DNA from: a plasmid
Length of the DNA stretch: 64,000 nucleotides
Sequence record: CP089609.1
Direction: 5' to 3' (one strand)
Every line of letters starts with the position of its first letter. Within the stretch, counting starts at the first letter, position 1. Of this stretch, positions 6,608-60,098 are shown one piece after another. Under the pieces are notes generated by a model. That model worked only from the letters and a program-made list of their open reading frames with translations, ran no database searches and was not told the DNA's origin. A program made the position numbers and the translations under genes.

Positions 6608-6730
6608 AACGGTCCCCTCACACGAGCACTGGCCACCCCAGAAACGGCACGCCAGCCGGTGTAGGGTACTCAGCTGTCGTTTCTGTAGTTCGATCTAGTA
6701 CGAATAAGATTTGTTTAGTACGATGATGGC

Positions 6731-7135
6731 GTGGAGAGGCGCTTGACTCGCATCCAGCCTTGCGCGGTGTGTTCTGCAGCGGTTCGCGTTCCTGCTGGTT
6801 CTGATGAGGAGTACGAATTGGTGCTGCCGTCGCAGCCGCCTGCAGTCCGGCGCCGAGGGAACGTTGTCAGGGTGGTTGGCCCATATCCGTGTTACCTGGT
6901 TTGCGATGCCTGCGCGGCAAGGCTTTTGGGGCCGCGCACCGGCGGGAAAGTATCGAACCCGGCGGGAGTGATGGATGCGCTGCGTGAACGCTATGGCGAC
7001 GGCTACGCCTCCTGGATCTCGCCAGGGGCACTGCCGGCCATGCTGGACGACGCGGCCGAGTACCTGAGTAGCAGTGAGGCCCGGGGTGGGGTGGACTTCG
7101 GCACCTGGCAGAAGATGCGCGAGCTTCAGCGGTGA
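6731..7135 (+). CDS. IS-associated small Cys-rich protein (CAVC...CYLVCDAC), translationally coupled to tnpA
   Basis: GTG start; stop overlaps tnpA start (GTGA); conserved inside both IS copies. Confidence 0.55.
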   Translation: MERRLTRIQPCAVCSAAVRVPAGSDEEYELVLPSQPPAVRRRGNVVRVVGPYPCYLVCDACAARLLGPRTGGKVSNPAGVMDALRERYGDGYASWISPGALPAMLDDAAEYLSSSEARGGVDFGTWQKMRELQR

Positions 7136-7722
7136 ATTTGAAGGATTGGGCGCTGGCGCAGGGCATCCACCCGCAGACGGCATACAAGATGTTCCGCGAC
7201 GGAACGTTGCCAGTTCCTGCGCAACGGGTAGGGCCGCGGCTGATCCTGGTGAACCCTGAAGGCGTCGCGGCGACGCCAACCGAGGGCGTTGGGCTCTACG
7301 CCCGGGTCTCCTCACACGACCAGAAGGACGATCTGGCACGGCAGACAGCCAGGCTCAACGCGTGGGCTGTGCAGGCCGGCCATCGTGTTGTCCGCAGTGA
7401 AGCCGAGGTGGGTTCGGGGATGAACGGTGCGCGGGCAAAGGCGCGCCGACTGTTGTCGGACCCCGAGGTTACGGTCGTGGTCGTGGAGCACCGCGACCGG
7501 CTCGGGCGGATGAATACCGAACTTGTGGAGGCGGCGCTGTCGGCGTCCGGTCGTCGTCTGGTGGTGCTCGATGACGGCGAAGTCGACGACGATCTGGTGC
7601 GCGACATCACCGAGGTGCTGACGTCGTTCTGTGCCCGACTGTACGGCCGCCGCTCAGCCAAGAATCGAGCCAAGCGGGCGTTGGAGTGTGCGGCCGGGTC
7701 TGATGGTGGCACGTCGGCGTGA
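7132..7722 (+). CDS. tnpA: IS607-family TnpA, serine recombinase/resolvase-type transposase
   Basis: 196 aa; N-terminal MerR-like HTH (MNLKDWALAQGIHPQTAYKMFRDG) and resolvase catalytic core (YARVSSHDQ); resembles IS1535/IS1536-type TnpA. Confidence 0.85.
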   Translation: MNLKDWALAQGIHPQTAYKMFRDGTLPVPAQRVGPRLILVNPEGVAATPTEGVGLYARVSSHDQKDDLARQTARLNAWAVQAGHRVVRSEAEVGSGMNGARAKARRLLSDPEVTVVVVEHRDRLGRMNTELVEAALSASGRRLVVLDDGEVDDDLVRDITEVLTSFCARLYGRRSAKNRAKRALECAAGSDGGTSA

Positions 7723-9310
7723 ATGCTCTGGCACGCAACACGTCCGGGCTGCGGCCGATCGCCGACCCGTTCGTTGTCGCGCCCCGAAAGGTGTGCGGAC
7801 CCGCACCCGGGTCCATCTCACACCGCGGGAAGAGGCGGTGCTCGAACAGATCGGCGTGTTCTTAGGTGAGCAGTACCGGGCCACTTTGGTTGATCGGATC
7901 GCGCTGGGGGCAGCCACGAAGAAAGACCAGGGCGTGTGGCGGCAGGTGCGTAAGCAGGCCCTCACCGCGAGCACGTCATCGCGGTGGGCCGGAGCGATCA
8001 CCCGCACCGCTATCGACTCCTACGACTTGGGCATGCGCGGGCTGAACGCTCACGTCGACTCGTTGACCGCCGCGGTCTCGACCTTGAGCGCCCGGCTAGC
8101 CGTACCTGTGGGTGACACGTCGCGCGAGGCGAATCGTCCCCGCACCAAGCCGGTTCGGGGCTATGCGACCGAGGCAGAGCGGTTTGGCAAGTCGCGCCGC
8201 AAGGCCCACCTAGAAGCGCGTCTGGCGCAAGCCTGGGCCCGTCAGGAGCAGGGGCGGCCCCGCATCGTTGTTGGTGGTGGCCGGTTGTGGCGCAACCGTC
8301 AGAATCTTGGCGAGACGTCGATGACTCTTGCTCAGTGGGAGAAGCGCTGGACTGAGGAGCGGATGTTCCTGACCGCTGATGGGGAGTCCGGCAAGCGTTT
8401 TGGCAACGAGACCATCCGTGTCACCGATGAGGGCGTACTCATGCTCAAGGTGCCCGGAGCCTTGGTGGCCGAGCACGGGACGACCCGGCTCACGATTACC
8501 GCACCGGTATCCCTGAACACCCATCGCGGTGGTGAGTGGGCTGATCGGATCGTCGCCGACCGGGCCGTACGGTACGACCTACACCGCGACCCGCGGGGAC
8601 GCTGGTACCTCGACGCGTCCTGGGGCTACGCCCAGGCCCCCGCCGTGCCGTTGGCCTCGCTGCGCACCCAGCGCACGCTCGGCGTGGATCTCAACGACGG
8701 GCACATCGATGTCGCCGTGGTTGATCCACACGGCAACGTCATCGGCATTCCCCAGCGGCTGGAGTTCACCCTCACCGGTGGCACCGCCCGCCGCGACGCC
8801 CAAGTCCGCCACGTCATCACTCGCCTGATCCGCCTGGCCACCGAGCATGGCTGCGCATCGATCAGCATCGAGAACCTCGGATTCGACGAGGCCCGCAACA
8901 CTGGCCGGGAAACCATGGGCCGCGGCCGGCGAGGCAAACGGTTCCGCCGCACCGTCGCGGGCATTCCGACCGCCACATTTCGCAATCGGCTCGCCGCGAT
9001 GGCGGCCACCGCTGGGCTGTCGGTGATCGCTGTCGACCCTGCCTACACCTCCCGATGGGGACGCCAGCATTGGCTACCCGCACTGCAGACTTCCGACCCG
9101 ACCATCGACGGCCACCGCGCCGCCGCGGTTGTGATCGGCAGGAGAAGCCTCGGCCACCGCGCCCGGCGCAAGCCTGTCGGACCCGTCACGCGACAGAGGA
9201 CGCGCGACGGCCAGCCGGCCAGGCCAGCCACACGGCGACCGACGCCTTCTCGCTCGCGTGTCACCGCAACGCCGAAGGCGCACGACGCCGCAGGCCCACC
9301 GGACCGATAG
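7719..9310 (+). CDS. tnpB: IS607-family TnpB (OrfB_IS605, RuvC-like RNA-guided nuclease family). N-terminus is out of frame relative to copy 2 because of a 1-nt shorter C-run near 7785; an in-frame GTG lies at 7790
   Basis: GTG overlapping the tnpA stop; about 95% identical to the copy-2 protein starting MNALARNTSGLRP; the long ORF in the track begins at 7631. Confidence 0.8.
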
Positions 9311-59045: not shown

Positions 59046-59632
59046 GCCGACGTGCCACCATCAGACCCGGCCGCACACTCCAACGCCCGCTTGGCTCGAT
59101 TCTTGGCTGAGCGGCGGCCGTACAGTCGGGCACAGAACGACGTCAGCACCTCGGTGATGTCGCGCACCAGATCGTCGTCGACTTCGCCGTCATCGAGCAC
59201 CACCAGACGACGACCGGACGCCGACAGCGCCGCCTCCACAAGTTCGGTATTCATCCGCCCGAGCCGGTCGCGGTGCTCCACGACCACGACCGTAACCTCG
59301 GGGTCCGACAACAGTCGGCGCGCCTTTGCCCGCGCACCGTTCATCCCCGAACCCACCTCGGCCTCACTGCGGACAACACGATGCCCCGCTTGCACAGCCC
59401 ACGCGTTGAGCCTGGCTGTCTGCCGTGCCAGATCGCTCTTCTGGTCGTGTGAGGAGACCCGGGCGTAGAGCCCAACGCCCTCGGTTGGCGTCGCCGCGAC
59501 GCCTTCAGGGTTCACCAGGATCAGCCGCGGCCCTACCCGTTGCGCAGGAACGGGCAACGTCCCCTCGCGGAACATCTTGTACGCCGTCTGCGGGTGAATC
59601 CCCTGCGCACGCGCCCAATCCTTCAAATTCAC
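59042..59632 (-). CDS. tnpA: IS607-family TnpA serine recombinase
   Basis: 196 aa, only three substitutions relative to copy 1. Confidence 0.85.
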   Translation of the reverse strand: MNLKDWARAQGIHPQTAYKMFREGTLPVPAQRVGPRLILVNPEGVAATPTEGVGLYARVSSHDQKSDLARQTARLNAWAVQAGHRVVRSEAEVGSGMNGARAKARRLLSDPEVTVVVVEHRDRLGRMNTELVEAALSASGRRLVVLDDGEVDDDLVRDITEVLTSFCARLYGRRSAKNRAKRALECAAGSDGGTSA

Positions 59633-60033
59633 CGCTGCAGCTCCCGCATCTTCTGCCAGGTGCCGAAGTCAACCCCTTCCCGGGCCTCGCGGCTACTCAG
59701 GTACTCGGCCGCGTCATCCAGCAGCCCCGATAGCGACTCCGGCGAGGTCCAGGAGGCGTAGCCGTCGCCGTAACGTTCACGCAGCGCATCCATCACTCCC
59801 GACGGGTTCGATACCTTCCCGCCGGTGCGTGGCCCCAAAAGCCTTGCCGCACAGGAATCGCAAACCAGGTAACACGGATATGGGCCAACGACCCTGACAA
59901 CGTTCCCCCGGCGCTGGACCGCGGGCGGCCGCGACGGCAGCACCAGCGCGTACTCCTCATCAGAACCAGCAGGAACGCGAACCGCTGCAGAACCGAGCAA
60001 GGCTGAATGCGAGTCAGGCCCCTCATCACGCCA
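59629..60033 (-). pseudogene. IS-associated Cys-rich accessory gene, 5' end disrupted by a 4-bp deletion relative to copy 1
   Basis: copy 1 reads CCTTGCGCGGTGTGTTCTGCAG, copy 2 reads CCTTGCTCGGTTCTGCAG; the first CxxC is lost and the frame shifts. Confidence 0.45.
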
Positions 60034-60098
60034 GAAGCATACTAAAATAGACCTATTCGTACTAGATCGAACTAGCAGAAGATCAGATGCGTACCCCC

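Follow-up and report, generated by a model that had tools for sequence, protein, structure and literature searches.

The subject of this analysis is a 64,000-nt stretch of sequence record CP089609.1 (hereafter the window), which is part of a 220-kb (220,108-bp) Mycolicibacterium fortuitum plasmid, and in particular a pair of inverted insertion sequence (IS) copies that enclose about 48 kb of it. Ten proteins from the first 11 kb, around copy 1, were submitted for comparison and seven of these matched exactly the M. fortuitum plasmid proteins UHJ58801–58815. A repeat finder reported one long inverted repeat made of four collinear blocks, with arms at 6664–9401 and 57365–60096. By pairwise alignment, the homology of the two copies starts at GGGTAC (6664 and 60096) and stops at GGAACGGT (9400 and 57366), and the flanks beyond these points are unrelated. 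Three overlapping open reading frames (ORFs) are found in each copy: an accessory gene (acc) of 134 aa with a CxxC...CxxC pattern, a tnpA of 196 aa and a tnpB-like gene of 529/530 aa. The features are as follows, with the strand given for each.

6664–9400, plus strand: IS copy 1, 2,737 bp, left end GGGTAC..., right end ...CAGGAACGGT
6731–7135, plus strand: acc of copy 1, 134 aa with CxxC...CxxC, its stop overlapping the tnpA start
7132–7722, plus strand: tnpA of copy 1, IS607-family serine transposase, 196 aa
7257–8419 (minimal) to 7204–8469 (maximal), plus strand: gene-conversion patch in copy 1 with copy 2 as donor, its left edge patchy over 7257–7437
7719–9310, plus strand: tnpB-like gene of copy 1, frameshifted as deposited, with C4 for C5 at 7782–7785
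9141–9400, plus strand: conserved 3' region and right end of copy 1, candidate omega RNA scaffold and candidate TnpA binding region
46996–46998, no strand: unoccupied GGT target, at which a Mycolicibacterium conceptionense contig (L014) carries its own 2.7-kb IS copy
57366–60096, minus strand: IS copy 2, 2,731 bp, left end at 60096 and right end at 57366
57456–59045, minus strand: tnpB-like gene of copy 2, 529 aa, intact
59042–59632, minus strand: tnpA of copy 2, 196 aa
59629–60029, minus strand: acc of copy 2, frameshifted by a 4-bp (GT)2 deletion at ~59992/59993

Both copies are IS607-family elements. The TnpA protein matches profile NF033518 with 179.4 bits (cutoff 110) over residues 4–179 and the Pfam Resolvase domain over residues 55–183, giving the arrangement typical of the family in which an N-terminal DNA-binding region is followed by a C-terminal catalytic serine-recombinase domain. 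Together with the repeat finder and the alignment, this match bears out an earlier note on this DNA, made from the sequence alone, in which two inverted IS607-like copies with unrelated flanks had been recognized. The family includes IS607 of Helicobacter pylori and IS1535 and IS1602 of Mycobacterium tuberculosis. The element studied here shares with the family the serine-recombinase TnpA with its catalytic domain C-terminal to the DNA-binding region, and a downstream gene, probably of tnpB type, that overlaps tnpA.

The limits of the element were fixed by comparison with ten other independent insertions, all of which match positions 1–2737 of copy 1. These were found on the M. abscessus plasmid pGD21-2, on four Logan/ENA contigs (L010–L013), in M. 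conceptionense (L014) and on four contigs from one metagenome (L015–L018). Left junctions read (R)G-GG-T(A/T/C/G)C... and right junctions ...GAAC-GG-T. Each of the 11 copies whose left flank is available has GG at its left junction; of 14 right ends, 13 have GG at the right junction, the exception being a partial copy (L007) that ends ...AACGTG. Before the GG, left flanks show an R-G preference only. Two pairs of empty and filled sites were available. One is the copy 2 site, which is empty in relatives of the window, and the other is the site of the M. conceptionense insertion, unoccupied in the window: contig L014 matches the window up to 46998 and resumes from 46996, with the 2.7-kb IS between. 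Both empty sites contain GG, and in each pair GGT is the sole sequence shared. Consequently there are no terminal inverted repeats, GGGTAC... and ...GGAACGGT being unrelated to each other, and no target-site duplication in either pair. The target is thus a GGGT-like sequence, with crossover via the GG dinucleotide. This agrees with IS607 as it is described in two reports, with no terminal inverted repeats or target duplication, a GG overlap dinucleotide and transposition through an excised circle (PMC4058570; PMC6188088). By its likeness to IS607, the present element would also be expected to transpose via a circular intermediate (PMC4058570).

The history of the two insertions was approached through related sequences, for which fetched sequence covers 1–19919 and 41209–64000 of the window, collinearity across 19.9–41.2 kb being known from locus-tag order only. 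Copy 1 occupies the same site in at least seven related contigs (L030–L036) that are 98.4–99.6% identical to the window, the contig L030 covering window positions 1–19919. Seven further contigs (L020–L026), corresponding to 45.5–64 kb of the window, have a precise empty site in place of copy 2, where 57368 joins 60093 in the same orientation with one GGT. Contigs of both types were recovered from each of two samples (SRR6046619 and SRR29340343), which have copy 1 in place but an unoccupied copy 2 site. The M. conceptionense contig is 96–99% identical over 41209–51923, its locus tags are monotonic along the window (20690 > 20675 > 20655 > 20645 ... 20290 > 20190) and the genes that stand on either side of copy 1 in the window are separated there by a single gene. 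The M. conceptionense backbone therefore appears to be collinear and without either copy, the absence of copy 1 being deduced from tag order. As relatives have the same junctions between interior and flank with one or neither copy, the intervening 48 kb is plasmid backbone that predates the insertions and keeps the ancestral orientation; it is not cargo. A search of PLSDB found the IS only on pGD21-2 and no close relative of the backbone, and a search of a phage collection gave no match. Copy 1 is old in the plasmid lineage and common to many relatives, and copy 2 was found only in the plasmid of the window. The independent acquisition of the two copies, which the earlier note had favored, is supported by these site distributions.

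The same comparison bears on the suggestion that the copies act as a composite transposon which mobilized the 48-kb block as a unit. It is true that one IS in two copies brackets accessory genes (toxin–antitoxin (TA) modules, a P450/TetR pair, methyltransferases and SIR2), and the interior does hold most of the TA and regulatory genes, as had been claimed; since it makes up 75% of the window, this content is uninformative. However, there are relatives with the same left flank, copy 1 and interior but no copy 2, relatives in which the same interior is joined to the right flank through the empty GGT site, and the M. conceptionense contig, which is collinear and apparently lacks both. The copies are 91% identical outside the block described below, so one is not a duplicate of the other. 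The outer ends are also both left ends (LE, at 6664 and 60096) and the inner ends both right ends (RE), and the LE and LE would be unusable as an excision pair if, as suggested by PMC4058570, recombination is between LE and RE via a non-palindromic GG overlap. Thus the block shows no sign of moving together with the copies and, going by the serine-recombinase mechanism, its outer ends would form no functional pair. We consider a composite transposon here to be so improbable that it can nearly be discounted. The synteny comparison that the earlier note had itself recommended found the backbone in the same orientation without copy 2, which is essentially the pattern it had named as making the IS later, unrelated insertions. 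Before an inverted IS pair around accessory genes is called a composite transposon, relatives should be compared, and in this case it is the empty and occupied sites that decide.

The two copies have not, however, remained separate in sequence. The identity of about 90% previously given for them does not describe the pair: overall identity is 94.85%, and it is strongly non-uniform, at ~99.4% within 7257–8419 and 91.0% outside this block. A run of 1,068 bp (7402–8469) is identical between the copies save for a single-base difference in a C-run. At the protein level the three-residue difference between the TnpA proteins was confirmed exactly (L8R, D23E and D66S), and with the indels repaired 118 of 134 residues of acc and 508 of 530 of the TnpB-like protein are identical. 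Outside the block, copy 1 is 100% identical to the copy 1 of relatives and 91.0% identical to copy 2, and copy 2 is about equidistant (84–91%) from every other variant of the IS, from which it follows that it is an independent lineage.

To place the block, a three-way comparison was made of copy 1 of the window, copy 2 of the window and copy 1 of the relatives (L030). Read in order, the informative sites comprise 69 of copy 1 type, then 74 of copy 2 type with six of copy 1 type interspersed at the left edge, and then 64 of copy 1 type; donor-type sites account for 74 of 80 within 7257–8419 and for none of the 133 outside. Over 19.9 kb, the window and L030 differ at 84 positions, 76 of which fall within 7212–8419 inside copy 1, and 74 of these 76 (7257–8419) are sites at which copy 1 of the window equals copy 2 of the window. 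At least six relatives spanning the tract agree, each with 72–84 mismatches to the window that lie nearly all in the tract. A block of the recipient thus matches the donor and differs from the orthologous copies of the recipient, as is required of gene conversion, and the copy 1 of the relatives polarizes the event: conversion ran from copy 2 to copy 1. The right limit lies between 8419 and 8470, immediately ahead of a 3-bp indel and clustered mismatches, and the patchy left limit is as expected from heteroduplex repair. After the arrival of copy 2, homologous recombination between the inverted copies, presumably RecA-dependent, transferred ~1.2 kb of sequence from copy 2 to copy 1, where it took the place of the last two-thirds of tnpA and the first half of tnpB.

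Such a sharply bounded patch that equals another copy, with an outgroup giving the direction, is what is seen in ectopic gene conversion between dispersed IS or repeat copies elsewhere; what is particular here is that a single plasmid carries donor and recipient in opposite orientation, so that resolution of the same event as a crossover would invert the 48 kb. The locus is a clean case, on a mycobacterial plasmid, in which ectopic gene conversion between diverged copies of an IS can be polarized and the donor, recipient and tract limits are all defined.

Two alternatives bear directly on this tract. It could have arisen in assembly or polishing, with reads of copy 2 mis-assigned to copy 1, and it must be said that this assembly has demonstrable errors and that repeats are the usual place for consensus mix-ups. 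Against this, the copies differ by ~7–9%, enough for unique placement of reads; the tract is sharply delimited, bordered at either end by copy 1-specific sequence that still belongs to the IS, and its patchy left edge is typical of heteroduplex repair; and the errors seen in the assembly are of run length and not substitutions. An artefact is accordingly judged quite improbable. The other alternative goes further than conversion and holds that the 48-kb segment is actively invertible through the IS copies, the assembly representing one isoform. The conversion patch means that the inverted copies have recombined, and since the repeats recombine, the 48-kb segment between them could invert; the 2.7-kb inverted arms, with their long near-identical stretch at 7402–8469, would provide the substrate. 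The assembled orientation is, however, the ancestral one at all junctions examined, the inverted form is not present in the assembled sequence, and GC skew shows no break at the IS boundaries, although this is a weak test on a plasmid. Active inversion is therefore a genuine possibility, but one we would place on the doubtful side. Conversion of copy 1 by copy 2, within a backbone in its ancestral orientation, remains the preferred explanation.

Each copy also carries an indel that had been described as a lesion, and the two are of different standing. The C-run at 7782–7785 of copy 1 is C4, where copy 2 and the copy 1 of L030 have C5 and the copies on pGD21-2 have CCTCC, of the same length as C5; in copy 2, GTGT has been lost from a (GT)3 run at ~59992/59993. 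Both are derived states relative to the outgroup copies. The shorter C-run claimed for copy 1 is indeed in the deposited sequence, but it is probably not a true lesion. Over positions 1–19919 the window differs from its relatives by six indels, all of run length (C5>C4, G6>G5, G5>G4, C4>C3, A2>A3 and C5>C4). At each of the five that lie outside the IS, the window stands alone against two to five independent assemblies, and substitutions outside the IS over the same interval number only three against these five indels. Relative to near-identical public contigs, single-base homopolymer run-length differences were located at window positions 12930, 13688, 16217, 18442, 19667, 56259, 60580, 61817 and 61879, mostly with one G or C missing. 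Genes that are intact in relatives are cut short in the window: a methyltransferase is reduced from 273 to 262 aa, a ThiF/nitroreductase protein from 717 to 647 aa, and a DLH-type hydrolase is not callable. This points to the record being an unpolished long-read assembly, so other apparent pseudogenes in it should be treated with caution. Every full-length tnpB-like gene fetched from the copy 1 of relatives is intact at 530 aa. As it is one of six run-length indels and the relatives are intact, the most likely source of the tnpB frameshift in copy 1 is a homopolymer error of the assembly, and copy 1 is probably intact. The general lesson is that a homopolymer lesion in a long-read assembly should be checked before a pseudogene is called.

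Were the copy 1 frameshift instead real, it would be very recent, there would be one true lesion in each copy and either copy could make good the defect of the other. In favor of this, the deposited sequence does show the deletion, which hits the conserved motif LRxIADPFVVAPP and would be damaging, and which, lying within the converted tract, would post-date the conversion. Against this reading stands the resemblance of the C5>C4 change to the five other indels of the same 20 kb (indels to substitutions 5:3), the fact that such indels break genes intact in relatives, and the intact state of all full-length copy 1 tnpB genes fetched; we therefore think a real frameshift unlikely. Escape of the copy 1 TnpB from the frameshift through an upstream in-frame start was also considered, and was rejected, as the N-terminal motif that would be lost is conserved in the family. 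The 4-bp deletion in copy 2 is a different matter, and the earlier description of it as striking the first CxxC of acc holds: the missing GTGT removes the second Cys of that motif. It is unique among nine copies compared, the well-matched 20 kb showed no indel errors of several bases, and it is probably a real slipped-strand mutation.

Taken together, we place a probability of roughly 80% on the account in which two diverged IS607-family variants inserted separately into an older plasmid backbone, copy 1 was patch-converted by copy 2, and the tnpB frameshift is a likely artefact. Several points weigh against it. Polishing could conceivably have homogenized the repeat, and the homopolymer-error argument is a statistical one drawn from the comparison of assemblies and not from reads. 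No relative with copy 2 was found, so its 4-bp deletion and its state as donor rest on a single assembly. IS607 excision is precise, so the empty copy 2 site could reflect loss of the element and not a site that was never occupied. The relatives with this empty site are only 93–97% identical to the window across 48–64 kb, and recombination of a plasmid segment that already contained copy 2, and not transposition, may have brought it in.

Identity to the same-sample relatives is itself uneven along the plasmid, at 99.3–99.6% on the left side (1–19919), ~93% across 48.2–57.4 kb (48203–57368) and 97% across 60.1–64 kb, which indicates that the plasmid backbone is a mosaic. An IS21-type element (rve transposase and IstB) is located at the equivalent of window position ~56089 in three contigs (L020, at 11588–14146, L027 and L029), with none in the window, and is thus a further IS whose presence varies in this backbone.

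We regard the element as a new member of the IS607 family, in which one further conserved gene is present and the TnpB-like protein departs from the canonical type; the biology of the pair is ordinary. It differs from the family in the third conserved gene, the 134-aa acc with its CxxC...CxxC pattern, which lies upstream of tnpA and is translationally coupled to it; coupling extends to all three genes, acc, tnpA and tnpB-like, and the acc product is a small Zn-ribbon protein. No Pfam or NCBIfam family was matched by this protein, and its AlphaFold model (pLDDT 59) was too low in confidence for a fold search. Only 24 homologues were found, all of them adjoining the same IS and all in one mycobacterial subclade. 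The reading frame is open and RIQPC[AS]VCS is kept in eight of nine translated copies, down to 84% nucleotide identity, with contig L011 out of register in the fixed-offset translation because of a 1-nt insertion upstream. A shorter acc of 104 aa from an internal GTG, the start chosen by most gene callers, would make the copy 2 deletion harmless. It was rejected as the main form of the gene because the 30 upstream codons with the first CxxC are open and conserved in eight of the nine copies, though it is possible that a 104-aa product from this GTG survives the deletion in copy 2.

The TnpB-like protein belongs to a family with more than 5,700 actinobacterial homologues of ~530–570 aa and no Pfam assignment. 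It differs from TnpB of the IS607 family in being long (529 aa), in falling below the curated thresholds (NF040570, 30 bits against a cutoff of 100; PF07282, 18 against 26), in having no CxxC zinc finger and in carrying His at RuvC-III. A profile search aligned its three RuvC blocks with Cas12f, and the best Foldseek matches of its AlphaFold model (pLDDT 83) were AsCas12f, CnCas12f1 and Cas12k (E 1e-7), so that by its predicted fold it is a divergent TnpB/Cas12f-like protein. With the TnpB/omega-RNA nucleases of IS200/IS605 and IS607 it thus shares a Cas12f/TnpB-like predicted fold, the RuvC-I Asp (D323) and the RuvC-II Glu (E384), the last two being invariant in the family. The catalytic triad is, in contrast, non-canonical, the likeness being one of sequence and model. 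Judged by sequence motifs, the CxxC zinc finger after the AYTS motif is absent in the family and H465 is invariant at the expected position of the RuvC-III Asp, so the canonical D-E-D triad and zinc finger of TnpB nucleases appear to be lacking. The N-terminal motif LRxIADPFVVAPP is kept across the family, down to 52% identity. A scan of genome contigs with TnpB yielded distant relatives only (Xylanimonas, Rhodococcus, Friedmanniella and metagenome-assembled genomes), which are informative for conservation of the ends and not for synteny.

These features invite a more far-reaching interpretation, namely a distinct three-gene IS607 subfamily confined to Mycobacteriaceae plasmids, in which acc works with the transposase, perhaps as a regulatory or directionality factor, the TnpB-like protein acts non-canonically through altered nuclease chemistry or as a nuclease-dead RNA-guided binder, and the copy 2 deletion is a natural knock-out complemented in trans by copy 1. 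We put this forward tentatively and think it rather unlikely. What the element adds to IS607 diversity is small: a three-gene IS607 with a Zn-ribbon gene, and a large actinobacterial clade of TnpB-like proteins without the zinc finger.

A further resemblance to the TnpB/omega-RNA nucleases may be the conserved 3' region, which is predicted to be structured and runs up to the right end of the element, where a guide would begin. The terminal ~30 nt (ACTCACTCCCGCTC...AGGAACGGT) are near-invariant even in copies of 67–76% overall identity, the Xylanimonas, Rhodococcus and Friedmanniella relatives being at 71–76%. Using RNAalifold, the last 260 nt gave a multi-stem fold with 59 predicted pairs, 11 of them with compensatory changes, one example in the non-coding part being C-G to U-A in five of 13 sequences; the covariation term is ~0 and much of the 3' region is coding. 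Scans of the window with Rfam and for tRNA gave no match. The 3' end fits a TnpB guide-RNA scaffold, as a candidate only, and RNA-guided homing by the TnpB-like protein, along the lines described in PMC10690162, might be envisaged.

Beside the right end of copy 2, relatives have seven extra bases (AGCATCT) at window position 57349, 16 nt from that end, and the flank of copy 2 is matched by the empty sites of relatives over the first ~16 nt only. The extra AGCATCT falls inside the stretch that would be the TnpB guide/target beside the IS.

Other copies of the element provide some indication of its mobility. In metagenome ERZ25072670 (L015–L018), one variant with an identical TnpB protein occupies four different sites, two of them on one 27-kb circular contig, which suggests that the three-gene element has been recently active in transposition. 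On pGD21-2 (NZ_CP065286.1), a 4.65-kb element was found inside two IS copies (L001, 1340–6000, and L002, 3973–8620); it codes for tyrosine recombinases of 402 and 875 aa and for a protein of 192 aa. The two insertions are at the same IS position (window equivalent 7633–7640, the 3' end of tnpA) and in opposite orientations, which suggests a site-specific mobile element targeting the IS607-family IS.

Pfam scans of all predicted genes of the window identified between the copies two methyltransferases, TetR, P450, a ThiF-nitroreductase protein, HTH_17 with PIN_3, MazF, XRE-type regulators, a Phd/YefM antitoxin, an IS200/IS605 element and SIR2, with many hypothetical genes besides. The IS200/IS605 element (37975–39545) consists of a tnpB (388-aa ORF with HTH_OrfB, OrfB_IS605 and TNB domains) and a Y1 tnpA (137 aa) in divergent arrangement, and is 83–90% identical to copies on plasmids of M. 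avium, M. intracellulare and M. paragordonae. At the C-terminus of its TnpB ORF, ~50 aa are apparently out of frame, with no clear zinc-finger motif. A direct repeat of ~230 nt (27543–27769 and 33521–33756), with 79–81% identity and copies 6 kb apart, overlaps two small paralogous ORFs on the minus strand (27469–27756 and 33465–33743) near the MazF and Phd/YefM modules.

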